Source of the DNA: an uncultured Acidobacteriota bacterium
GTDB lineage: Bacteria > Acidobacteriota > Thermoanaerobaculia > Thermoanaerobaculales > Sulfomarinibacteraceae
DNA length: 64,000 nt
Direction of reading: 5' to 3'
NCBI GenBank assembly: GCA_963814875.1
Contig: CAWFFJ010000015.1
Coordinates: 138,908 to 202,907, forward strand
Shown here: piece by piece, positions 9,923 through 30,878 of the stretch
Layout of the letters: each line of letters opens with the position of its first letter
How positions within the stretch are numbered: the first letter of the stretch is position 1
Position numbers and translations under genes: made by a program
The notes under the pieces: generated by a model
Seen by the model: the letters and a program-made list of their open reading frames with translations, nothing else
Databases searched by the model: none
What the model was told of the DNA's origin: nothing

Positions 9923-10132
9923 CACCACCAAGACACCAAGACACCAAGCAGGCGCTGAAGGTGATCGATGGCTTCTGGGTCGGCGTAGTCCGACGTTGAC
10001 GGGGCTGCGTGAAGCCACAGAGGGCTCTTGATGGAGACTCCGTCATGCGAGAAGCAGCTCCTGAGAGGGAGTATCGGTTGGCGAACTGCCAGCATCTTTC
10101 GGACTCCCTTGGTGTCTTGGTGTCTTGGTGGT
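9923..10132. repeat. octamer-arm inverted-repeat element, copy 1 (no intact cargo)
   Basis: Left arm 9923-9948 is CACCACCAAGACACCAAGACACCAAG. Right arm 10108-10132 is CTTGGTGTCTTGGTGTCTTGGTGGT, its reverse complement. The 159-bp non-coding interior begins GGCGCTGAAGGTGA..ATGGCTT, like the interior next to 12865. Confidence 0.8.
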
Positions 10133-12785: not shown

Positions 12786-12807
<22 letters not shown>

Positions 12808-12865
12808 GACACAGGGGAGCACAGAGCCCCCGCCCACCCGAAGTGAAACCACCAAGACACCAAGG
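12786..12865. repeat. left composite terminus of the cassette
   Basis: GAACAAACCACAGAGGCACTGAGACACAGGGGAGCACAGAG (8-nt periodic CACNGAGN), then CCCCCGCCCACCCGAAGTGAA, then ACCACCAAGACACCAAGG. It contains the stop codon (12805-12807) of the XdhD-like gene. Confidence 0.85.
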
Positions 12866-12988
12866 CGCTGCAAGTGAATGGCTTGAGGCGGTGGGGTGAC
12901 AAGAACGAATCGGGCATGTAGGGAGCGGCTGGCACTAGCCCGGACCCCCAACCCCAGCTGCCTCTGGTAGCATCGCCGCGGAGAGCCA

Positions 12989-13642
12989 GTGTCGCTCGCG
13001 AAAACCCTCACCCCAGAGAAGGCGCTGATCTTCAGGATCACACATCAGAGGAACGTCCCGTGGATTCTTGAGCATGGGCTCCACTGCCGGAGCTCGAACA
13101 TCGTGGACTCGGACTTCGTGAGCATTGGCAATCAAGACCTGATCGACAAGCGCGCGTCTCGTCTCGTTCCGGCGCACCCGGGGGGCGAGCTCGGCGACTA
13201 TATCCCCTTCTATTTCACGCCATATTCGCCGATGCTCCTCAACATCAGGACGGGCCGCGGCAACGTGAAAAGGCGGCGCAACGAGGAGATCGCCATCTTG
13301 GTGTCATCGCTCGCCCGCCTGTCGGAGCACGGGGTCAGGTACTTGATCACAGATAGCCACGCCTTCCTGGCGACAGCGCAGTTTTCTACAAACCTCGATG
13401 ACCTCAGAGAGTGGCTCCCATGGGAGCACCTCCAGGAACGCAACTTCAAGAGGGACCCAGACGACCCGACAGCGTTCGAGCGCTACCAAGCGGAGGCCTT
13501 GGCGCACAAGGAAGTGCCTACTGAGGCGCTGTTGGGCGTCGTTTGTTACACTGAGGGCGTAAGATCCAACCTAGAAGCCGAGCGGGTGAAACGCCGGGTT
13601 GACCTCAAGGTCCTGACGAAGCCAGATTGGTATTTCCCATGA
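12989..13642 (+). CDS. darT: DarT ssDNA ADP-ribosyltransferase toxin (DUF4433)
   Basis: 217 aa. N-terminal IFRITHQRNVPWILEHGL and C-terminal ERYQAEALAHKEVP match the DUF4433 pattern (xHITHxxNLxxIL... / QAEfLV with a catalytic Glu). GTG start after GGAGAG. The stop overlaps the darG ATG (ATGA at 13639-13642). Confidence 0.85.
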   Translation: MSLAKTLTPEKALIFRITHQRNVPWILEHGLHCRSSNIVDSDFVSIGNQDLIDKRASRLVPAHPGGELGDYIPFYFTPYSPMLLNIRTGRGNVKRRRNEEIAILVSSLARLSEHGVRYLITDSHAFLATAQFSTNLDDLREWLPWEHLQERNFKRDPDDPTAFERYQAEALAHKEVPTEALLGVVCYTEGVRSNLEAERVKRRVDLKVLTKPDWYFP

Positions 13643-14712
13643 TGCGATTCACCTCGGGCAACATGCTCCAAGCCGACGTCGAGGCGCTGGTCAACACAGT
13701 TAACACCGTCGGCGTGATGGGTAAGGGCATCGCCTTGATGTTCAAGGAGGCGTACCCGGAGAACTTCAAGTCCTACGTCGCGGCGTACAAGCGTGGGGAG
13801 ATTCGAACCGGCCACATGTTCGTCACCGAATTGCCCGCACGCCTTGAGGGCGGTCCGCGGTGGATCATCAACTTCCCAACCAAGGAGCATTGGCGGGGCC
13901 GGTCGAGAATGGAGTGGATCACCAAAGGACTCGAGGACCTCCGCCGTGTCATTCGCGAGAGGGGGATCTCCTCGATCGCAGTACCGCCCCTCGGGTGCGG
14001 CGCGGGAGGCCTCAACTGGCCGGATGTTCGGGCGGCGATCGTGGAGGCACTCGGCGATCTCAAGGCAGTCAACGTGGTCGTCTACGAGCCGACCTCGCAG
14101 TACCAGAACGTCACCAAACGGCGTGGCCTGCAGAAGCTCACGCCGGCCCGGGCGATGGTGGCCGAGTTGGTGCGCAGCTACTCCGTGCTCGGCATCGAGT
14201 GTTCGGTCCTCGAAATCCAGAAGATGGCCTGGTTCCTTGAGCGCAGCATCGAGAAACTGGACCTCCCCAACCCTCTCAACCTCTGCTTCGAGGCCAATAG
14301 GTACGGGCCGTACGCCGACCGGCTCCGCCACCTACTCGACGACCTTGACGGTAGCTACCTGCACTGTGAGCGCCGCCTGGCGGACGCGCGCCCCGCCGAC
14401 GCCATTTGGTTCGACGATGCCAAGCGGGACCTCGTCGCCGCCTACCTCGGCTCCGGCGACGCCAAGCAATACCAGGACGCGCTCGACAGGACGACCGCAC
14501 TGATCGACGGCTTCCAGTCGCCTCTCGGTCTCGAGCTGCTGGCGACGGTGGATTGGCTCGTCGCCCGCGAGGGGGTTGAGCCCGAGCTTCAGGCTGTTCG
14601 CGACGCGCTTGCGCACTGGCCAGGCGGCAGATCCGCCGGCGAGCGCAAGCTGCGCCTCTTCGACGACCGCATGCTCGGTTTGGCCCTCGAGCGCCTTTCC
14701 TCAACAACCTAG
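13639..14712 (+). CDS. darG: DarG macrodomain antitoxin (ADP-ribosyl-DNA glycohydrolase) with C-terminal DarT-binding region
   Basis: GNMLQADVEALVNTVNTVGVMGKGIALMFKEAYPENF...SIAVPPLGCGAGGL is a Macro-domain signature. A roughly 200-aa helical C-terminal domain follows. It is translationally coupled to darT. Confidence 0.85.
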   Translation: MMRFTSGNMLQADVEALVNTVNTVGVMGKGIALMFKEAYPENFKSYVAAYKRGEIRTGHMFVTELPARLEGGPRWIINFPTKEHWRGRSRMEWITKGLEDLRRVIRERGISSIAVPPLGCGAGGLNWPDVRAAIVEALGDLKAVNVVVYEPTSQYQNVTKRRGLQKLTPARAMVAELVRSYSVLGIECSVLEIQKMAWFLERSIEKLDLPNPLNLCFEANRYGPYADRLRHLLDDLDGSYLHCERRLADARPADAIWFDDAKRDLVAAYLGSGDAKQYQDALDRTTALIDGFQSPLGLELLATVDWLVAREGVEPELQAVRDALAHWPGGRSAGERKLRLFDDRMLGLALERLSSTT

Positions 14713-14786
14713 GTACCCACAGTTAGGGCAGCACACCTTCGTTCTCCGCCCTCGAGCGCACACAACGCCGGCTGTCGCCTTAGCCC

Positions 14787-14815
14787 TTGCCAACATCGTG
14801 TGGACATCGTATATT
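14787..14815 (+). promoter_or_regulatory. candidate sigma70-type promoter for the TIR-NLR operon
   Basis: TTGCCA (14787-14792), then a 17-nt spacer, then TATATT (14810-14815), about 30 nt upstream of ATG 14846. The spacer carries a direct repeat ACATCGT-GTGG-ACATCGT. It sits in an AT-richer 133-bp gap after darG. Confidence 0.35.
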
Positions 14816-14845
14816 TCGTTAGAAGGCTCGAGTCGGAGGGTCGTC

Positions 14846-15337
14846 ATGGAAACCAAGATCCGCTTCTTCGCTTCCTACGCTGCCAAGGATGGGGCCTTGG
14901 CCGAACGGCTTCTGGAACCGCTTCGCTCGCACCTCGCGGCGTCGAAGCGCTTCGCAGTCACGGTGTGGGACTTCCATCGGCTGTTGGTGGGCGAGCGGTG
15001 GCACGTGAGGATCCTGGCTGAGCTTGACCGGAGCGATTTCGGTCTGCTGCTGCTCAGCCCGGCGTTCTTGACGTCGAGGTACATCGACGAGCACGAGCTG
15101 CCCCGTCTCGTCGGAAAAGGTGAGAAGCCTGTGATCCCGGTCTGTCTGAGGCTCATCGACCTCGAACGCCAGAGCATGAAAGGGCTCGAGCAGTATCAAC
15201 TCTTCCGGCTCGGCGGCCGCACCTTCTCCCAGCTGACGACGGCTGCTCAGCGGGAGCGCTTCGTCTTCGAGCTTTACCGTCAGATCGAGGACCGCGTCGC
15301 TTCCCTGTGGGCACATGGCAGCGGTGAGGCGCCATGA
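14846..15337 (+). CDS. stand-alone TIR-domain protein (163 aa)
   Basis: ATG 14846 follows GGAGGG. KIRFFASYAAKDGALAERL...DFGLLLLSPAFLTSRYIDEHELPRL fits the bacterial TIR pattern (F-x-SY..D ... S..Y..S.(W/Y)x..E). The stop overlaps the next ATG (ATGA at 15334-15337). Confidence 0.8.
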   Translation: METKIRFFASYAAKDGALAERLLEPLRSHLAASKRFAVTVWDFHRLLVGERWHVRILAELDRSDFGLLLLSPAFLTSRYIDEHELPRLVGKGEKPVIPVCLRLIDLERQSMKGLEQYQLFRLGGRTFSQLTTAAQRERFVFELYRQIEDRVASLWAHGSGEAP

Positions 15338-18300
15338 TCGCTGCACGTCGTCGCCTGGGTGGCGGAGCATTGCGAGCAGTGCTGCCGCGGATTGAGGAGC
15401 AGTTAGGCTCGGCCGACTGCGCACGCCTACACCAGTGCTTGGATGCCCAGGACGGCGATCGCCTGCAGATGGCGCGGCTCCTTGAAAGGCTGTTCCCTGG
15501 GAAGTCCACACAGGAAGGGCAGGCCTCGCTGCGGAGCTTCCGGCAAGCATTCAACCGAGCTGCTGAAAATGCGGGGCTCGCCGTTTCCTTCACCGCCGAC
15601 ACGAAGAAACGCACACCGGCGGCCGAGCGTTGGTGCTGGTTCGAGGGTGAGGGGCTCGATGAGGCGACCATGGCGGAACGGTCCGCCGCCGAGGCGGAGC
15701 CCACGGACCCCGAGCGAATGGTCCGGCCACAAGCGAAGAAGCTCGACGCTCGTCAGGTTGTGCGCTGGGTCGTACTGGCCGCACCGCCTGACGGGGACGC
15801 AGCACGCCCGTTCATTGTCGAGCTGGAAAAGTCCCTTCGCGGCTCAAGCCGGTATGACTTCGTTGGCTGGGCGCCGTGGAACGTTCTGGCCGGCGAGAGG
15901 CCCGAGGAGGAGAGGGCGCGCCAGCTCGAGAAGGCCGACCTCGTCCTGGCCATGGTCAGCGCAGGCTTCGCGGCCGACCCTGCCGTCGTTGAGCTGTCGG
16001 ACGACGCCGTCGAGGCTGGGAAGATCGTCGTCCCGGCCCTCCTCAGCCAAGTCGACCCGAAGCGTCAGCGACTGGGCAGAATCGGCGATATCGAGCTATT
16101 CCCAAAGAACGGCAAGTCGTGTGCCGGCTGCTCCTTGCACCAGCGGGGGCAGCTGGCACACGAGCTGTTCACGGTAATCGTCGAGCGAATGGAGAAGGCA
16201 TGCGATGAGGGCGAGAAGCATCGAATCAAGGCGGAGACGGCCCTCGAGCGAGCTTTCCGGGACGATCTCGACGACTCGGGCTTTCCGGCTGAGCCGGTCC
16301 CGAGCCGCGGTCGCCTGACCAAGATCCGGCTGCTGCGAGCCGAACGTGATGAGCGCACAACGGGCCGCATCGACGGCTTCGACGCGGTCGACTACCTGGC
16401 ACGGTGGGCCGCCGACCCCTCCTCGCCCCCGTTCTGCGCTCTGCTCGGCGAGGTCGGCATCGGCAAGACCACCGCCTGCCAGCTCCTCACGCTTCGCTTG
16501 CTTGCAGCACGGAAGGAGGATCCCGGACTCCCGCTCCCGATCTACCTCGATCTGCGGCGCTACTCCTGGGACGGGAAGGTCGACTTCACCCTCGAGCAGA
16601 TCCTCGATGCCGTCCTGAGCCGGAGCTGGCGCGCAGGCTTCGGCGCGCCTCTCGGCGCAGAGGGCGTGATACGCCTCGTCACCGAGGCGGGGGCACTGGC
16701 GATCTTCGACGGGCTCGACGAGGTCCTGGTGCATATGCAGCCGAAGCTCGGCCAGGACTTCATCCGCGAGCTGTGGCGCCTCAGGCCGCCCGTGCGCCGC
16801 CGGGCCAAGCTCACCGACAGGGCGAGAGGAGGCAAGCTGCTGCTTTCATGCCGGTCGCACTACTTCCGCACCGTGCTCGAGCAGAACGCACTGCTCCTCG
16901 GCGAGGAGCGCGAGGGTCTCAGGGGCGAGGACTACGACGCCCTGGAGCTGCTGCCCTTCGACGCCCAACAGATCGAGAGCTACCTGCGGCGAAACCTCCC
17001 CGAAGTCGACGTCGAGCGGGCGCTCGAGCTGATCAGGTCGGTCCACAACCTGCCAGAGCTCGCCGAGCGACCTTTCACCCTGTCGCTGATCGGTGAGCAC
17101 CTGCCCGAGCTGGAGGCGAAGCGGGTCGCCGGCGGCACAGCCCGAGGCATCGACCTCTACCAGGCGGTGGTGGATCGCTGGCTCCAGCGCGACCACGGCA
17201 AGCACCAGCTCAACCCGAGCCACAAGCGGCTGCTCATGGAGAACCTCTCCGCCGAGCTGTGGCGCGCCGGCCGACGCGAGTGGGGCTGTGAGCAGCTCGA
17301 GGCATGGCTTGACGGGTTTCTGTTCGCCAACCCGATCATCGAGGGCGCCTATCGGACCATTGAGCGCGAGGTGCTCAAAGAGGACCTCCGCACCGCCACC
17401 TTTGTCGTGCGCACCGACGACGACACCTTCCGCTTTGCGCACTCCTCATTACAGGAGTACTTCCTCGCATCGAGGCTCCACCGGGCGCTCCGCGAGAATC
17501 ACCCCGAGGCGTGGGCGATCCCCATGCCCTCGGAAGAGACCCTCGGCTTCCTGCTTGAGCTGCTCGAGTCGCGCCCGGAGGACCGCGAGGCGTGCGAAGG
17601 AACGCTCTGCGACATCCTGGCCGTATACCGCCCGCAGGCAAGCGAGCTCGCCTTCAAAGTGTGGCTTCTCGCCCACAGCAACGGTAGGCCCCTTCCCCGA
17701 CCAAAGTGTTTCGACCTCCACGGGGCGGATTTGGCCGGTTGGCACATCTCCGCGCCGCCAGGCCGGTTGGTCGATCTGACGGGTGCCGATCTCCGGAACG
17801 CAAACTTGCGACGCGCCGTACTCGAGCGCGTCACCCTCAACGACGTTGACCTGCGAGGGAGCGATGCCGTCGCGGCCGAGCTTCACGAGGTCGAGCTGCA
17901 TGGAGCGCTGGTATCTGACGCCGACCTCACCGCCACTCTCTGGCGCCGGTCGCGGGTGGTGGATATCGACTTTTCCAAGACGCGTCTCGAGGGCTCGCGC
18001 ATGATCCGGTCGACTCTGAAGAGGGTCACCTTGCCAGGCGCGCGGGGGGAGGTGCTCGCGAGCTGCATGGTCGACGGGGCGGAGCACTCGTCCCTGGACT
18101 CTCGAGGCGGCGCGACGCTGGGGCTCTTCACCGGACATTCAAGTAACGTCGCATCCTGCGCGGTCGCGCCCGACGGCCGCCGCGGGCTCTCCGCGGGTGA
18201 CGACGGCACCGTCAGGCTCTGGGACCTCGACTCCGGCGAGTGCCTGCGCGTGCTCGAGGGACATCGAGCCGGGGTCTCGGCGTGCGCGGTCGCCCCCGAC

Positions 18301-19446
18301 GGCCGCCGCGCGCTCTCCGCGGGTGACGACGGCACCGTCAGGCTCTGGGACCTCGACTCCGACGAGTGCCTGCGCGTGCTCGAGGGGCATCGAGGCCGGG
18401 TTTTGGGGTGCGCGGTCGCCCCCGACGGCCGCCGCGCGCTCTCCGCGGGTGACGACGGCACCGTCAGGCTCTGGGACCTCGACTCCGACGAGTGCCTGCG
18501 CGTGCTCGAGGGACATCGAGGCGGGGTCTCGGCGTGCGCGGTCACCCCCGACGGCCGCCGCGCGCTCTCCGCGGGTCGTGACGACGGCACCGTCAGGCTC
18601 TGGGACCTCGACTCCGGCGAGTGCCTGCGCGTGCTCGAGGGACATCGAGCCGGGGTCTGGGCGTGCGCGGTCGCCCCCGACGGCCACCGCGCGCTCTCCG
18701 CGGGTGGTGGCGACTTCACCGTCAGGCTCTGGGACCTCGACTCCGGCGAGTGCCTGCGCGTGCTCGAGGGGCACGGGCACACCTCTTGGGGGTGCGCGGT
18801 CGCCCCCGACGGCCGCCGCGCGCTCTCCGCGGTTGACGACGGCACCGTCAGGCTCTGGGACCTCGACTCCGGCGAGTGCCTGCGCGTGCTCGGGGGCCAT
18901 CGACACTGGGTTAGGGGGTGCGCGGTCGCGCCCGACGGCCGCCGCGCGCTCTCCGCGGGTCGTGACGACGGCACCGTCAGGCTCTGGGACCTCGACTCCG
19001 GCGAGTGCCTGCGCGTGCTCGAGGGCCATCGACGCTGGGCCTGGGCGTGCGCGGTCGCGCCCGACGGCCGCCGTGCGCTCTCCGCGGGTGACGACGGCAC
19101 CGTCAGGCTCTGGGACCTCGACTCCGGCGAGTGCCTACACGTGCTCGAGGGCCATCGAGGCGAGGTCTGGGCGTGCGCGGTCGCGCCCGACGGCCGCCGC
19201 GCGCTCTCCGCGGGTGACGACGGCACCGTCAGGCTCTGGGACCTCGACTCCGGCCTCGAGACGCTGACCATGGCAACCCTGCCTGGCGGCGAGGCCGCGG
19301 CCCTCGACCCGATTTCAGGCACATGCCGGCGTGCCTCGCCCGGCGCCTGGCGGTGGCTCGGATGGCTCGCCCGCGACCCCGAGACCTGCAAAATCCGCCG
19401 CTACCCCGCCGAGAGCTTTGGCCCGCTGCCCGGGTCTGAAGACTGA
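15334..19446 (+). CDS. NLR-like STAND NTPase: unassigned N-module / TIR-like domain / NACHT / pentapeptide repeats / 9 WD40 repeats (1370 aa)
   Basis: A TIR-like alpha/beta block spans aa 142-242 (VVRWVVLAAPPDG...ADLVLAMVSAGFAADPAVVEL; 15757-16059). Walker A GEVGIGKTT is at 16447-16473 and Walker B LAIFDGLDEV at 16696-16725. A pentapeptide-like block covers aa 793-900 (ADLRNANLRRAVLERVTLNDVDLRGSD...; 17710-18033). Nine GH...TVRLWD WD40 units span 18133-19255. Confidence 0.85.
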   Translation: MIAARRRLGGGALRAVLPRIEEQLGSADCARLHQCLDAQDGDRLQMARLLERLFPGKSTQEGQASLRSFRQAFNRAAENAGLAVSFTADTKKRTPAAERWCWFEGEGLDEATMAERSAAEAEPTDPERMVRPQAKKLDARQVVRWVVLAAPPDGDAARPFIVELEKSLRGSSRYDFVGWAPWNVLAGERPEEERARQLEKADLVLAMVSAGFAADPAVVELSDDAVEAGKIVVPALLSQVDPKRQRLGRIGDIELFPKNGKSCAGCSLHQRGQLAHELFTVIVERMEKACDEGEKHRIKAETALERAFRDDLDDSGFPAEPVPSRGRLTKIRLLRAERDERTTGRIDGFDAVDYLARWAADPSSPPFCALLGEVGIGKTTACQLLTLRLLAARKEDPGLPLPIYLDLRRYSWDGKVDFTLEQILDAVLSRSWRAGFGAPLGAEGVIRLVTEAGALAIFDGLDEVLVHMQPKLGQDFIRELWRLRPPVRRRAKLTDRARGGKLLLSCRSHYFRTVLEQNALLLGEEREGLRGEDYDALELLPFDAQQIESYLRRNLPEVDVERALELIRSVHNLPELAERPFTLSLIGEHLPELEAKRVAGGTARGIDLYQAVVDRWLQRDHGKHQLNPSHKRLLMENLSAELWRAGRREWGCEQLEAWLDGFLFANPIIEGAYRTIEREVLKEDLRTATFVVRTDDDTFRFAHSSLQEYFLASRLHRALRENHPEAWAIPMPSEETLGFLLELLESRPEDREACEGTLCDILAVYRPQASELAFKVWLLAHSNGRPLPRPKCFDLHGADLAGWHISAPPGRLVDLTGADLRNANLRRAVLERVTLNDVDLRGSDAVAAELHEVELHGALVSDADLTATLWRRSRVVDIDFSKTRLEGSRMIRSTLKRVTLPGARGEVLASCMVDGAEHSSLDSRGGATLGLFTGHSSNVASCAVAPDGRRGLSAGDDGTVRLWDLDSGECLRVLEGHRAGVSACAVAPDGRRALSAGDDGTVRLWDLDSDECLRVLEGHRGRVLGCAVAPDGRRALSAGDDGTVRLWDLDSDECLRVLEGHRGGVSACAVTPDGRRALSAGRDDGTVRLWDLDSGECLRVLEGHRAGVWACAVAPDGHRALSAGGGDFTVRLWDLDSGECLRVLEGHGHTSWGCAVAPDGRRALSAVDDGTVRLWDLDSGECLRVLGGHRHWVRGCAVAPDGRRALSAGRDDGTVRLWDLDSGECLRVLEGHRRWAWACAVAPDGRRALSAGDDGTVRLWDLDSGECLHVLEGHRGEVWACAVAPDGRRALSAGDDGTVRLWDLDSGLETLTMATLPGGEAAALDPISGTCRRASPGAWRWLGWLARDPETCKIRRYPAESFGPLPGSED
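18133..19255 (+). repeat. nine tandem 126/129-bp coding repeats (WD40 units) inside the NLR gene
   Basis: Units start at 18133, 18259, 18385, 18511, 18640, 18769, 18895, 19024 and 19150. Between units 2 and 3 the last ~99 nt (GTGCGCGGTCGCCCCCGACGGCCGCCGCGCGCTCTCCGCGGGTGACGACGGCACCGTCAGGCTCTGGGACCTCGACTCC...) are identical, and the other units differ only slightly there. Differences cluster in the first ~27 nt of each unit. Confidence 0.9.
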
Positions 19447-19538
19447 GGCAAACTGGTCGTTGCCGCGGCTGTCCTTCAAGGCCCGGATCGGCTTCCGACC
19501 TTTGGCTTTCTATGGTCTCGCCCTGGGCGGGTGGGCGG

Positions 19539-19632
19539 CTTGGTGTCTTGGTGTCTTGGTGGTTCACTCTTGGGCGGGTGGGGGCTTTCAAACCCTCTGT
19601 GCGTCTCTGTGCCTCAGTGTCTCTGTGGTTTG
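19539..19632. repeat. right composite terminus of the cassette
   Basis: CTTGGTGTCTTGGTGTCTTGGTGGTTCACTCTTGGGCGGGTGGGGGCTTTCAAACCCTCTGTGCGTCTCTGTGCCTCAGTGTCTCTGTGGTTTG is the reverse complement of the left terminus modules. It ends 13 nt before the hydantoinase stop codon (19645-19647). Confidence 0.85.
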
Positions 19633-21027: not shown

Positions 21028-21119
21028 AACCACAAAGGCACGAAGACACAAAGAAATCCACAACGATTCTGGTGCCGCAGGCTCATGTCCTCTCTGTGTG
21101 TTTTTGTGTCTTCGTGGTG
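21028..21119. repeat. octamer-arm inverted-repeat element, copy 3 (diverged, minimal hairpin)
   Basis: AACCACAAAGGCACGAAGACACAAAGAAATCCACAA (21028-21063) pairs with TCTCTGTGTGTTTTTGTGTCTTCGTGGTG (21091-119) around a 27-nt loop. It has the same CACNAAGN periodicity and is preceded by the C-rich CACCACCCCCACCCTCCC (21003-21020), as in the other copies. It lies between the hydantoinase start and the ssnA-like stop. Confidence 0.6.
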
Positions 21120-25273: not shown

Positions 25274-26747
25274 ATGGAGGTGGCGGTGGGCTCCGAATCG
25301 AGAAACGCTCGCGACCGAACGCTCGAGAGATGCCGCGCCCGCGGCATCGTGATTCCGACCCTGGCCGAGCAGCGCGACCCGGGGACCGCGCCGGCAGCTG
25401 TCCGGAAACGGCTACCGGCGGTCGACCCCAATGCCGTCGACCCGGTCAACCTGTACCGGATCACCTGGCACAACGATCCTGCGACCGGGGGCTTCGGCCC
25501 GGTCGACGCGCTCGAGCTGCCGCCGGAGCTGACCGGAGTCCCGGCGAGGATCGTCGGCCTGATCGGACGCCACTTTCCGACCGGCTCCCACAAGGTCGGA
25601 GCGGCCTTCGGCTGCCTGGTGCCGCGACTGGTGAACGGAGAGCTTCGACCCCACGAGCCAGGTCGCGGTGTGGCCGTCGACCGGCAACTACTGCCGCGGG
25701 GGTGCCTTCGACTCGGCCCTCCTGGGCTGCCACTCGCTCGCAATCCTGCCCGAGGAGATGAGCCAGGAGCGCTTCCGCTGGCTGGAGTCGATCGGCGCCG
25801 AGGTCCTCGCCACGCCGGGCTGCGAGTCGAACGTCAAGGAGATCTTCGACGCCTGCTGGGAGCTCAAGCGGACCCGGTCTGACGTGGTCGTCTTCAACCA
25901 GTTCGATGAGCTCGGCAACTACCTCTGGCACTGGGCGGTGACCGGGCCGGCGGTCGAGGAGGTGTTCACGCGCCTCGCGGGACCGGGCTCCCGGCTCGCG
26001 GGCTGGGTGTCCGCGACCGGCTCCGCCGGCACCCTCGCCGCCGGCGACTGGCTCAAGGCCCGTCACCCCGGCTGCCGGGTGGTCGCGGCAGAGGCGCTGC
26101 AGTGCCCGACCCTGCTCGCCTGCGGCTTCGGCGGCCACCGCATCGAGGGCATCGGTGACAAGCACGTGCCCTGGATCCACAACGTCCGCAACACCGACGC
26201 CGTCACCGCGATCGACGACGAGGCCACCCTACGCCTTCTGCGCCTGACCAACGAGCCCGCCGGCCATGAGCTGCTGCGCCAGCGCGGGGTCCCGGAGGCG
26301 ACCATCGCCCGCCTGCCCCTGCTCGGCATTTCGAGCCTGTGCAACGTGCTCGCCGCGATCAAGACCGCGCGCTGGTTCGAGCTCGACGGCGACGACGTGC
26401 TCCTGACCAGCTTCACCGACTCGGCCGACCTCTACCGGACCCGGCTCGACGAGCTCGCCGCGGCGCATGGTCCCTACCGCGAGCTCGACGCCGCGGTCGA
26501 CCTCGAGCGCCGGCTCCTCGGGGCCACGACCGACCACTACCACGAGCTCGGCTACCACGACCGCAAGGCGATCCACAACCTCAAGTACTTCACCTGGGTC
26601 GAACAGCAGGGCCGCACGGTAGACGAGCTCAACGCGCTGTGGAGCCCGTCCTTCTGGCATGACGTCCAGGACGGCGCGGACGCGCTCGACGCCGCGATCG
26701 CGGCGTTCAACAGCGACGCCGGCGTCGCTGTCGGAGGTGCCGCGTGA
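25274..26747 (+). CDS. PLP-dependent fold-type II enzyme (cysteine synthase/beta-subunit family), interrupted by an apparent +1 frameshift near 25643-25652
   Basis: The N-terminal part (frame of 25274) carries the PLP-lysine motif FPTGSHKVGAAFGCLVPRLV. The rest (AVWPSTGNYCRGGAFDSALLGC...SATGSAGTLAAG...) continues in frame +1 (track ORF 25668..26747). Skipping one base between 25643 and 25652 (C4 run at 25649-25652) restores one ORF. Confidence 0.75.
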
Positions 26748-27953
26748 GCCTCGAGATCGCCCACGACCTGCTCGAGTCCTGCGCCCGCCACGAGACCGAG
26801 ATCGTGGCCTTCCTGCGCGACCTGATCGCGATCCCCGCCGAGAGCGGCGCCGAGGGTGATCGCTGTGCCCGGGTGCTCGCCGAGTACCAGAGACTCGGCT
26901 TCGACGAGGCGCGCTTCGACGGGCTCGGCAACGTGGTCGGCCGGATCGGCTCCGGTCCGGTCACGGTGCTGCTGGACGGTCACGTCGACTGCGTCGGGCG
27001 TCGGCGACCCGACCTCGTGGTCGCATGACCCGTTCCGCGGCAAGCTCGAGGCTGGCGAGGTCTGGGGCCGAGGCGCGGTCGACGAGCTGCCCGCGGTGGC
27101 GACGATGCCGTGGGCGGCGCGGCTCGCGGCGGACCGCGGCCTGCTCGACGGCGTCACCCTCTACGTGGTCGCCTCGGTGATGGAGGAGGCCTTCGACGGC
27201 TTCCCGCTGCAGTGGCTGATCGAGCGCGAGGGCGTCCACCCTGACGCGGTCGTGCTCGGCGAGCCGACCGACCTCGCCGTCTACCGCGGCCACCGCGGCC
27301 GGATGGGGATCGAGGTCGTGGCCCGGGGCGTCTCCGCCCACGCTGCGCACTGCGACCTCGGCGTCAACGCGGTCACCAAGATCGCGCCGATCGTGCTCGA
27401 CGTCGATGCCCTCCATCGGCGGCTGCCCGGCCACGACGTGCTCGGCAAGGGCTCGGTGACGGTGAGCTTCATCGAGTGCACCACCGCCTCGCTCAATGCG
27501 GTGCCGGACCGCGCCCGGATCGTGCTCGACCGTCGACTCACGGCCGGCGAGACCCCCGAGTCCGCCCTCGCCGAGATCCGCGCTCTGTCCCACATCGGCG
27601 ACGCCGAGGTCCGCACTCTGACCTCCCGCGGGCGCTCGTGGCGCGGCGTCGACGTCGAGCTCGAGGAGGCCTACCCGACCTGGCTGCTCGATGCCGACCA
27701 TCCTCTGGTCGAGGGCGTCGCCGAGGCCGCGCAGGCAGTGCTCGGCGGGGCGCCACGGCTCGGGGTGTGGACCTTCTCGACCAACGGCGTCGCCACCATG
27801 GGCCGGCTCGGGATCCCGACCGTGGGCTTTGCGCCCGGGCGGGAGGAGCTCGCCCACACCACCGAGGAGCACGTCGCGGTCGCCGATCTGCTGAGAGCGA
27901 CCGCGGTCTACGCCCTGATCCCCGCCGCCCTCGCCAGGAGGTTGGGGGGATGA
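26744..27953 (+). CDS. ygeY: YgeY-like M20 family metallohydrolase, interrupted by an apparent +1 frameshift at the G3 run 26996-26998
   Basis: The GTG 26744 start overlaps the upstream stop. ...VLLDGHVDCVG (frame A) joins VGDPTSWSHDPFRGKLEAGEVWGRGAVD... (track ORF 26856..27953) if one G of GGG is removed. The stop (27951-27953) overlaps the ATG of the GxxExxY gene. Confidence 0.8.
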
Positions 27954-28372
27954 ACCACCAAGACACCAAGACACCAAGACGGAAGCCAGAGCCGGTCTCG
28001 TCTGCCATTGACGAGGTCGCTCGTCAGGTGGTCGATGCTGCATACACGGTTCATCACGAGCTCGGACCCGGTCTGCTCGAGTCGATCTACGAGGCGTGTC
28101 TTGCGCGAGAGCTCGAGCTGCGGGGCATTCCGGTCGAGCGGCAGGCGTCGATTCCGGTGGTGTACAAGGGTGTCCGGCTTCCGTCCTCGCTTCGGATCGA
28201 CCTGCTCGTCGGTGGCTGCGTCGTCGTCGAGGTGAAGGCCGTCGATGCCCTCGTCGGGGTTCACACGGCGCAGATTCTCACATACCTCAAGCTGTCAGGG
28301 CTTCGAGTCGGTTTTCTTGTCAACTTCAATGTCGGTGTCATCAAGGACGGAATCCGCAGGATCGCGCTGTGA
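27950..28372 (+). CDS. GxxExxY protein (PD-(D/E)XK nuclease superfamily)
   Basis: GPGLLESIYEACLARELELRG contains the G-x-x-E-x-x-Y motif. RIDLLVGGCVVVEVKAV gives the D...E-x-K nuclease motif. The first ~10 codons (MNHQDTKTPR) are encoded by the repeat arm. Confidence 0.85.
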   Translation: MNHQDTKTPRRKPEPVSSAIDEVARQVVDAAYTVHHELGPGLLESIYEACLARELELRGIPVERQASIPVVYKGVRLPSSLRIDLLVGGCVVVEVKAVDALVGVHTAQILTYLKLSGLRVGFLVNFNVGVIKDGIRRIAL

Positions 28373-28416
28373 CGAATCATCGGACCGACCTCTTGGTGTC
28401 TTGGTGTCTTGGTGGT
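27954..28416. mobile_element. octamer-arm inverted-repeat element, copy 4, carrying a GxxExxY nuclease gene
   Basis: The arms are 27954-27980 (ACCACCAAGACACCAAGACACCAAGAC) and 28391-28416 (TCTTGGTGTCTTGGTGTCTTGGTGGT). A single 140-aa gene fills the interior. It is inserted between the ygeY-like and ygeW-like genes. Confidence 0.6.
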
Positions 28417-28442: not shown

Positions 28443-29417
28443 ATGCAGACCAAGCTGAAGGGCAAGCACTTCATCACCACCCAGGAGTGGTCGGTCGAGG
28501 AGGTCTCAACGGCGCTTGACCTCGCGGCCGAGCTCAAGCTCGCCAAGGCGACCGGGAAGCCGCACCGGCTGCTCGACGGCAAGACCCTGTACATGATCTT
28601 CTTCGACGCCTCGACCCGGACCCGCAACTCCTTCGAGACCGGGATGACGCAGCTCGGCGGGCACGGTATCTACCTGTCGCCGGACAAGATGCAGATCTCC
28701 CACGGCGAGAACGCACGCGACACCGCCAACGTCCTGTCCCGCTACGGCGAAGGGATCGCGATCCGGCACTGCGCCTTCGGGCAGGGCAACGCCTACCTGC
28801 GCGAGGTCGCCGAGCACGCCTCGGTGCCGGTGCTCAACATGCAGTGCGACGTCTACCACCCATGCCAGATCCTCGCCGACCTGCTCACCATCCGCGAGAA
28901 GCACGGCCGAACCCGGGGGCTCAAGCTCGGCGTGGCGTGGACCTCGGCGCCCAACTACGTGCGTCCGCTGTCGGTCCCACAGAGCCTGATCCTGCTCATG
29001 CCCCGGTTCGGGATCGACGTCACCCTCGCGTATCCACCGGAGTTCCGGCTCATGCCGGAGATCGAGGAGCAGGCGCGACGCAACGCCGAGATCGCCGGCT
29101 CGCGGTTCGAGATCAGCCACCGCTTCGAGGACGCCTTCGACGACGCCGACGTGGTGATCCCGAAGTCGTGGGGACCGCTGCTCCACACCCGCGACACCCA
29201 TGAGGGCATCGAGCTCATCGCCCACTACCCCGAGTGGCGCTGCGACGCCGAGCGCATGGCGCTCGGCAAACCCGGCCTGATCTACATGCACCCGCTGCCC
29301 GCCGACCGCGGGCGCGAGGTCACCAACGAGGTCATCGACGGCCCGCAATCGGTGGTCTACGACCAGGCCGAGAACCGGCTCCACGTGCAGAAGGCGCTGA
29401 TGGCGCTCACCATGTAG
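28443..29417 (+). CDS. ygeW: YgeW-type (knotted) carbamoyltransferase
   Basis: ATG 28443 lies 7 nt after GGAGG. FFDASTRTRNSFETG (STRTR carbamoyl-phosphate motif), HPCQILADL and the PLPADRG C-terminal motif. 324 aa. Confidence 0.85.
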   Translation: MQTKLKGKHFITTQEWSVEEVSTALDLAAELKLAKATGKPHRLLDGKTLYMIFFDASTRTRNSFETGMTQLGGHGIYLSPDKMQISHGENARDTANVLSRYGEGIAIRHCAFGQGNAYLREVAEHASVPVLNMQCDVYHPCQILADLLTIREKHGRTRGLKLGVAWTSAPNYVRPLSVPQSLILLMPRFGIDVTLAYPPEFRLMPEIEEQARRNAEIAGSRFEISHRFEDAFDDADVVIPKSWGPLLHTRDTHEGIELIAHYPEWRCDAERMALGKPGLIYMHPLPADRGREVTNEVIDGPQSVVYDQAENRLHVQKALMALTM

Positions 29418-30663: not shown

Positions 30664-30878
30664 ACCACCAAGACACAAAGACACCAAGACACCAAGAGGA
30701 ATCACAGAGCCGGCCTTCACGACCGATCTTCGAGGTGGAGCTCCAATGGGGCATTGCGAGCGGTCCTCCGCCGCGGCAGACCTCTGTTACCTGTGGAAAA
30801 GACCGGCTGCAATGTTCCGGGTCTAGCCCTGGCTGCCTCGGGTGGGCGGGGGGCTTGGTGTCTTGGTGTCTTGGTGGT
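30664..30878. repeat. octamer-arm inverted-repeat element, copy 5 (no intact cargo)
   Basis: The arms are 30664-30698 (ACCACCAAGACACAAAGACACCAAGACACCAAGAGG) and 30854-30878 (CTTGGTGTCTTGGTGTCTTGGTGGT). The 155-bp interior ends ...GGTCTAGCCCTGGCTGCCTCGGGTGGGCGGGGGG, similar to the sequence just inside the right cassette terminus at 19514-19538. Confidence 0.8.

Follow-up and report, generated by a model that had tools for sequence, protein, structure and literature searches.

A GxxExxY nuclease gene between inverted octamer arms in an uncultured Acidobacteriota bacterium: a member of a very large element class with a possible REP/RAYT-like pairing of enzyme and hairpins

A stretch of 64,000 nucleotides from the genome of an uncultured Acidobacteriota bacterium (Sulfomarinibacteraceae; assembly GCA_963814875.1, contig CAWFFJ010000015.1, positions 138,908 to 202,907 of the forward strand), hereafter referred to as the window, carries a small gene for a GxxExxY-type nuclease that is enclosed by two inverted arms made of tandem octamers. 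We refer to this gene-bearing element, consisting of the nuclease gene and its two arms, as E4. The class of elements to which E4 belongs is very large; its members have a minimal RecB/Cas4-like nuclease gene between inverted octamer arms, and gene-less hairpins far outnumber the genes (five elements and one gene in the window). In all genomic respects that we tested, E4 works like a system of repetitive extragenic palindromes (REPs) and REP-associated tyrosine transposases (RAYTs). We put at about 0.5 the probability of such a REP/RAYT-like pairing, in which the substrates of the GxxExxY nuclease would be those hairpins whose arms are of its own type.

The nuclease gene occupies positions 27950..28372 on the plus strand of the window (ATG at 27950; TGA at 28370-28372), an open reading frame of 140 codons plus stop that is matched by both Pfam and NCBIfam profiles. 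The left arm of E4 (27954..27979) consists of ACCAC followed by CAAGACAC units that make up three CACCAAGA octamers and encode residues 2-10 of the protein, while the right arm (28391..28416) starts 18 nt past the stop codon and repeats the left one exactly, as its reverse complement. A repeat search returned this pair, whose formula is ACCAC(CAAGACAC)n, as a 26-nt inverted repeat with 100% complementarity and 411 nt between the arms. The original prediction, made by a model from the DNA letters, had let the gene begin 4 nt ahead of the left arm and end 18 nt ahead of the right arm, had read codons 2-10 (NHQDTKTPR) as arm sequence, and had noticed that the start codon shares bases with the stop codon of the ygeY-like gene upstream (ATGA; 27950..27953, plus strand); its coordinates and codon assignment proved exact, and the overlap is confirmed by the sequence. 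An AGGAGG motif is present a few nucleotides 5' of the nuclease ATG, within the ygeY-like host gene. The 16-mer CACCAAGACACCAAGA, with up to two mismatches allowed, occurs 17 times in the window, as opposed to 0.02 occurrences expected.

The linkage of gene and arms extends far beyond E4. The 120 best database homologues of the protein (58-71% identity), whose source names point to several bacterial phyla and one archaeal metagenome-assembled genome (MAG), include 100 with an HQDTKTPR-type start (two or fewer substitutions), so that the repeat-encoded N-terminal peptides for which the original prediction proposed to look are indeed widespread among them. Since this search was biased by its word index, two unbiased tests were made. 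In a domain-only search against 1.84 billion representatives, approximately 25-30 of 149 N-termini, counted by eye, were encoded by octamer repeats of various types (HQDTKTPR, HRGTEDTE, AEDAEDAE, RQGRQGRQ, and HKDTK). The second test, a scan of metagenomes by the internal motifs AQ[VLI]LTYLKL and GLLES[VI]YExC only, yielded 80 loci, 74 of them with sufficient flanking DNA; clearly significant inverted arms (z >= 6) surround the gene in 61 of these 74 loci, and weaker arms in a few more. None of the loci from the genome scans overlaps the window. In all arm-flanked loci of the motif-based scan, the arms are tandem arrays whose 8-9-nt units follow the pattern C[AG]C-NN-AG-N. Because most GxxExxY genes sampled irrespective of their N-terminus have arms, gene and arms form a genuine unit rather than a coincidence, and this unit is a property of the entire family, which comprises 20,831 representative clusters (50% identity) at E <= 1e-3. 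The left arm lies 5' of the start codon in about half of the loci from the motif-based scan; hence, it is the nucleic acid that is conserved, and the arm-encoded peptide is incidental.

The arms recovered by the motif-based scan share the octamer consensus C-A-C-N-A-A-G-R, typically with three units per arm. Within the octamer, variation is largely confined to positions 4 and 8, with positions 1-3 and 5-7 being nearly invariant, a pattern that fits sequence-specific recognition better than mere base pairing. The outer arm ends with ACCAC/GTGGT in 42 of 100 elements, and the others carry short extensions. When ATG plus arm (the first 30 nt) were compared with loci of other phyla, in genomes of 42-64% GC versus 70% for the whole window, this segment was 93-97% identical and the gene bodies 54-62%. 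The exact 25-mer ACCACCAAGACACCAAGACACCAAG is present in at least 116 stretches of species-representative genomes from more than 10 phyla; the matches listed include Acidobacteriota, Verrucomicrobiota, Alphaproteobacteria, Cyanobacteria, Chloroflexia, Armatimonadota, WOR-3, Methylomirabilota, Ignavibacteria and others, and among them are the cultured Alphaproteobacteria Azospirillum, Caenispirillum and Telmatospirillum. The arms also co-vary, both with each other and with the protein: the arm match within an element is 21.8 versus 10.7 between elements, and arm type correlates modestly with protein similarity (59.2% versus 55.5%, p < 0.0005). Across the sampled loci, the two arms of one element are approximately 85% complementary. 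Their G.U-compatible mismatches are distributed without strand bias (62 sense versus 76 antisense), which, together with the invariant octamer positions, favors recognition of a repeated motif over a simple structural stem.

The 140-aa protein is matched by a single Pfam family, PDDEXK_3 (PF13366; E 8.8e-42, 142.6 bits with a cut-off of 22, profile positions 2-117 of 117), and by the NCBIfam model TIGR04256 GxxExxY (E 3.2e-42, 143.6 bits with a cut-off of 35). In an alignment of 53 homologues, E44, D84, E94, K96, and Y112 are invariant and Q108 is nearly so; the GLLESIY and D...EVK motifs pointed out in the original prediction (G41-L-L-E44-S-I-Y47 and D84...E94-V-K96), as well as Q108...Y112, fall into these invariant or near-invariant columns. 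D...ExK plus QxxxY constitutes a nuclease signature, and the predicted catalytic residues are intact. An AF2 model of the protein has a predicted local distance difference test score (pLDDT) of 91.5, with a mean of 49 over the low-confidence first ~10 residues; residues 1-17 form a disordered, mostly arm-encoded extension without secondary structure, and the nuclease domain spans residues ~18-140. Its nearest solved folds are Cas4 SSO0001 (4ic1; E 3.4e-3, TM 0.51), lambda exonuclease, RecE, and the nuclease domain of AdnAB. These structural matches are weak, and a sequence search of the PDB with the window protein gave no match; the model nevertheless predicts a RecB/Cas4-like PD-(D/E)XK nuclease domain of ~120 residues with a restriction-endonuclease-like fold. 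Neither Pfam nor the fold search detected a DDE, HUH or recombinase domain in the protein, and PADLOC left it unmatched. In a survey of PD-(D/E)XK proteins, PF13366 is entered with the function 'Unknown' (PMC3424549). Representatives P0121-P0137, the top-scoring ones, are proteins of 260-295 aa with a tandem pair of GxxExxY domains and the variant motif GPGxxExxYE.

Gene-less hairpins are the common form of these elements in genomes. Pairing of the arms among the matches listed gave 96 elements, with loops mostly of 8-140 nt, of which four contain a GxxExxY gene or a remnant of it and one contains an HNH gene. The latter (L032, 2442-3222) encodes a 250-aa protein with an HNH motif, identified as such by motif, and is the sole non-GxxExxY coding cargo among the 96 pairs listed. 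True remnants or decayed copies of the GxxExxY gene are those of L080, L098, and L203. In two loci of the same MAG (L061, 1495-2255; L020, 3276-3603), CACCAAGA arms enclose an additional, unrelated inverted repeat, GGAATACTCTCGCACCTTG...GGATAACGGC; of its two copies, only one contains a GxxExxY gene. In cyanobacterial loci, tandem 75-nt hairpin units, each with ATGAACCACC, directly follow the 3' end of the GxxExxY gene (L003, 10414-10790; L004, 10414-11010); this array has five units in one sample and eight in another.

Gemmatirosa kalamazoonensis, a cultured bacterium with complete replicons, illustrates the relation between genes and hairpins. Hairpins of the CGCAGAGGA type occupy at least 40 and at least 39 places in its two 1-Mb replicons, as compared with three gene places, and ~14 hairpins were counted in 200 kb of replicon. 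Its first GxxExxY copy, which is frameshifted, lies between two complete CGCAGAGGA-type hairpins; its second copy, which is divergent and intact, lies between hairpins built from 11-nt GGACTGAAGAA units. No CACCAAG arms were detected in the 200 kb of Gemmatirosa examined. The arms thus belong to a genome-specific family, which agrees with the arms beside the resident genes, each Gemmatirosa paralogue having its own type.

The site that E4 occupies can be located in relatives through orthologues of the downstream carbamoyltransferase gene (84-91% identity). It is empty in L206 (85%) and L209 (84%), where the stop codon of the upstream gene and the next start codon are 14 nt and 3 nt apart, respectively. 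Relative L203 (91%) carries a 5'-truncated GxxExxY remnant with CACAGAGA-type arms at this position, and L204 (87%) carries nested empty hairpins with CACAGAGG outer arms. Given the empty junctions of L206 and L209 and the other occupants in L203 and L204, E4 is an insertion between a stop codon and a ribosome-binding site, a result that answers the comparison of gene spacing suggested in the original prediction. The site has seen more than one occupation, or has been remodelled. Two further hairpin sites of the window (those of the elements E3 and E5, described below) are occupied in L203 as well, with other arm types and loops, and the inner GCCGCCCACCC/GGGTGGGCGGC motif has been kept. These orthologous sites lie at L203 2835-3030 and 12215-12395 and display other octamer types and other loops; the one orthologous to E5 is a hairpin with CACAGAG-type arms. 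Read from the sequences, the differing octamer types at orthologous sites suggest arm-type switching or replacement in place.

Orthologous pairs of the gene have ratios of non-synonymous to synonymous substitution (dN/dS) of 0.16 and 0.07, indicative of purifying selection. Homologues of the protein were found in seven of 72,556 plasmid records, all of them large and non-mobilisable plasmids, and in none of 50,697 phage records; the arm 25-mer is present in one viral contig, a duplicate of a Caenispirillum-like locus. The GxxExxY elements hence look more like long-lived, mostly vertically inherited residents than like actively hopping elements or classical homing systems, and the homing-like behavior that had been suggested for the nuclease loses ground through this inheritance and the low dN/dS values.

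Most neighbors of the elements point in the same direction as the nuclease gene (39 of 50 upstream and 32 of 42 downstream), and in 22 of 39 cases the left arm lies no more than 10 nt from the upstream stop codon. No promoter-like or terminator-like site was detected between positions 27500 and 28800 of the window. The nuclease gene would therefore have no promoter of its own and would probably be transcribed by read-through from the host operon. As the 26-bp stem starts one base past the start codon, its translation may proceed only by re-initiation at the ATGA overlap, in what would amount to translational coupling; read-through and re-initiation together would hold the level of the nuclease low. 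In the pairing that we favor, the nuclease gene would be the protein-coding partner of the dispersed gene-less hairpins with the same arms. The sites recognised by the enzyme would be the repeated CAC..AAG units that build up the arms, in the form of a duplex or of folded single-stranded DNA, and it would cut at these sites. As a result of the cuts, hairpins would be gained, lost, converted and nested, and the flanks of the gene itself would be kept intact. More tentatively, and with odds that we place somewhat below even, this could be generalised to a pan-bacterial system of repeat plus enzyme, the PD-(D/E)XK counterpart of the RAYTs and of the REP doublets forming hairpins (REPINs), in which the nuclease reads CAC-N-AAG-R, creates, converts and nests hairpins, and occasionally carries defense cassettes as cargo.

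The host genes of E4 are a YgeY-family M20 hydrolase gene upstream (26744..27953, plus strand; NCBIfam NF009555, 327.8 bits with a cut-off of 321, in the C-terminal frame) and a gene for an ornithine/N-acetylornithine-type carbamoyltransferase downstream (28443..29417, plus strand; profile matches). Relative to the intact 402-aa orthologue in the 91% relative L203, one nucleotide is inserted into the ygeY-like gene near 26,995-27,000; because of it, the gene reads as two frames, which tblastn returned as two segments in different frames; the gene is either a pseudogene or affected by an assembly error. The element had been placed between a ygeY-like and a ygeW-like gene. Its position stands, and the ygeW label does not, as the downstream carbamoyltransferase falls under both YgeW cut-offs (213.6 bits versus 453 and 196.3 versus 500), the top profile models being those of ornithine and N-acetylornithine carbamoyltransferase. 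This carbamoyltransferase gene (28443-29417) is part of a PALP - M20 - carbamoyltransferase - PALP cluster that is conserved in Acidobacteriota-like relatives and that adjoins amidohydrolase genes and a gene for an oxidoreductase with Fe-S, flavin and dihydroorotate (DHO)-dehydrogenase domains.

A scan of the window for tandem CAC-anchored octamers revealed four elements beyond E4. Two of them are gene-less hairpins with CACCAAGA arms that fold as single long hairpins: E1 (9924..10132) has a loop of ~157 nt (z = -6.9), and E5 (30664..30878), which lies 5 nt past the stop codon of its upstream gene, a loop of ~155 nt (z = -5.1). The hairpin of E3 (21029..21118) is small and degenerate, has arms of the CACAAAGG/CACGAAGA type and folds weakly (z = -1.5). 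In E2 (12792..19629), a 6.7-kb DarT-DarG-TIR-NACHT/WD40 cassette is enclosed by two arm pairs, one nested in the other, with an outer pair of the CACAGAG type (12792-12826 and 19595-19629) and an inner pair of the CACCAAGA type (12848-12865 and 19538-19563). The DarT-DarG pair, the TIR protein and a 1370-aa NACHT-WD40 protein are encoded in the innermost loop of these nested arms. An independent metagenome contig, L215, equals exactly this cassette and is broken at the inner arms; identical copies of the DarTG cassette come from the same organism only, and its 65% DarT relatives are devoid of arms. Several hairpins have, immediately inward of their arms, the G-rich motif GGGCGGGTGGG(C/G)GG together with its complement (window 19525-19537, 19573-19586 and 30843-30856). 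It is also present in L203 (12255-12270 and 12330-12345), where it has been kept at the orthologous site despite the differing arm type, and it may represent a second, inner layer of repeats. Rfam, applied to the whole window, and a tRNA scan gave no matches.

Several known systems resemble the elements described here, REP/REPIN-RAYT systems the most (PMC3116915, PMC3337134, PMC5581495). In both, palindromic repeats are dispersed between genes, often just past stop codons and within operons; inverted copies of these repeats lie on both sides of one or a few protein genes, which the repeats far outnumber; separate paralogues go with separate repeat types; and inheritance is vertical, under purifying selection and without target-site duplication. 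The enzymes differ, however: a PD-(D/E)XK nuclease is found here, whereas RAYTs are IS200/IS605-like HUH (Y1) transposases. The repeats differ as well, in that arms of tandem 8-nt units take the place of the single 20-40 nt palindrome of REPs and end with ACCAC, without the conserved GTAG or CGTC tetranucleotide tag that REP repeats carry at one end (PMC3733652). With HUH transposase and tag both missing, E4 is not filed as a RAYT system. Furthermore, REP families are regarded as lineage-specific, whereas one arm sequence is shared here by more than 10 phyla, down to an exact 25-mer.

Cas4, RecB and lambda exonuclease provide the best structural matches and share the conserved D...E-x-K and Q-x-x-x-Y motifs, but the domain found here is much smaller (~120 residues) and lacks a CRISPR or helicase context. 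Cas4 proteins contain cysteines that coordinate an Fe-S cluster; such cysteines are probably absent here, because only one cysteine is invariant. With homing endonucleases, among which I-Ssp6803I is of the PD-(D/E)XK type, the elements have in common a free-standing small nuclease gene, presence/absence polymorphism of the site, degenerate copies, and no target-site duplication. They differ in that the gene is not located in an intron or intein, that the would-be target is a dispersed repeat rather than a unique site in a conserved gene, and that they persist vertically for long times under purifying selection. Gene-less inverted-repeat elements beside a gene-bearing one, and nested insertions in loops (E2, L204), are reminiscent of miniature inverted-repeat transposable elements (MITEs) and of insertion sequences (ISs) in REPs; neither a transposase family domain nor target-site duplications nor deletion derivatives are present here. 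IS1397 and ISKpn1 are IS elements that insert into REP loops. ISPpu9 likewise inserts in REPs (PMC8450116). We also considered the intervening-sequence elements of 23S rRNA genes, a candidate that was rejected: two isolated rRNA-motif matches (L020, L142) were all that was found, and no Rfam rRNA reached the gathering score in L013, L020, L061, and L142. A search of the literature, subscription-only publications lying outside it, found nothing on the arm sequence, the arm peptide or the linkage of gene and arms, and the system of nuclease and octamer hairpins is apparently undescribed.

A number of observations weigh against the pairing of nuclease and hairpins. We infer the action of the enzyme on the arms from their association alone, and a 25-mer common to more than 10 phyla could be explained by a conserved host factor equally well as by nucleases that are 60% identical. 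A hairpin, be it in RNA or in DNA, is not positively demonstrated, given arms of ~85% complementarity and mismatches without strand bias. The copy of Gemmatirosa that lies beside the abundant hairpin type is the frameshifted one. E1 and E5 have loops that are not significantly similar to the interior of E4 or to each other, and a hidden Markov model search in six frames detected neither a further GxxExxY gene nor a remnant of one in the window, the E2 cassette included. The original prediction had regarded the empty copies and the defense cassette as non-autonomous relatives of the gene; they do have the arms in common with it and nothing else, so that they are not recognisable deletion derivatives. 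None of 99 elements has a 3- or 4-nt direct repeat indicative of a target-site duplication (2-nt direct repeats number 15 versus 8.5 expected, inside the null range), and no recent duplicates at different loci were found among 84 elements, the closely similar ones being confined to orthologous loci where flanks and elements have diverged to the same extent. Of the selfish or mobilising module originally proposed, the insertion is therefore borne out by the empty junctions in relatives, and recent transposition, with neither recent copies nor target-site duplications, is not.

Alternatively, the hairpins might be an independent and older repeat family that is spread or kept by another enzyme or by a host function, with the gene a selfish passenger settling in their loops. 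One route to this would be that the nuclease cuts empty hairpins and is copied in by repair via the ~25-bp homology of the arms, a form of homing to dispersed targets with which the missing target-site duplications agree. The great excess of hairpins over genes and the unrelated loops of the hairpins speak for this scenario, as does other loop cargo (the HNH gene of L032 and the DarTG-TIR-NACHT cassette of E2); the nesting of arm pairs in E2, L204, and L061 shows that loops take insertions, and the variety of occupants that one site has in relatives, together with the decayed copies of L080, L098, and L203, resembles a homing cycle. We nevertheless consider a passenger, the main rival of the pairing, rather unlikely. 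Arm type tracks the protein clade and the Gemmatirosa paralogues each have their own arms, from which it follows that gene and arms tend toward joint inheritance rather than toward the sampling of local hairpins. Moreover, E4 bears no trace of the CACAGAG-type arms found at the site in closer relatives, and orthologous copies of the gene persist under purifying selection, having diverged to the same degree as their flanks, unlike the rapid invasion and decay of typical homing genes.

The location of the elements within operons, co-directional, right past a stop codon and without promoter or terminator, would also suit arms that work at the level of RNA, with a stem in the operon transcript that is processed by RNase III or limits translation and a nuclease whose role is unrelated (repair or defense). 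The stem, which starts one base past the AUG, would render insertion into an operon harmless, and REP elements and the 'fold-back inhibition' of IS10-type elements are precedents for such RNA-level effects of stems. However, G.U-compatible changes are not in excess on the sense strand, and a pure stem would allow compensated changes, yet near-invariance across phyla is seen at six of the eight positions in the octamer. Since, in addition, there is no Rfam family match, no rRNA context that would tie the elements to rRNA intervening sequences, and no PADLOC match for the protein, we hold an RNA-level explanation to be improbable. A conventional insertion sequence with MITE derivatives, finally, is effectively excluded: its likeness to the elements (inverted termini, one enclosed gene and many short gene-less copies) is superficial, in view of a ~120-residue RecB/Cas4-like nuclease in place of a DDE, HUH or recombinase domain, the lack of target-site duplications of 3 nt or more and of near-identical copies at separate loci, gene-less copies (E1, E5) that do not derive from the gene-bearing one by internal deletion, and the near-absence of homologues from phage and plasmid records.

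GxxExxY/PDDEXK_3 proteins are among the larger protein families without a function, and the arm rule provides a concrete candidate for their substrate, one that makes the function of the family testable with oligonucleotides. A hairpin repeat that is conserved across phyla, in genomes of 42-70% GC, is unusual for bacterial repeats. Octamer arms have practical consequences, too, since they break metagenome assemblies, as seen with L215, which ends exactly at the arms; and the loops of the hairpins are possibly landing sites for defense cassettes. If the proposed pairing of nuclease and hairpins is true, a second and mechanistically different class of enzymes would join the REP/RAYT paradigm, and its generalisation to a pan-bacterial system would explain both the role of a family with more than 20,000 clusters and the presence of one and the same 25-mer across more than 10 phyla.

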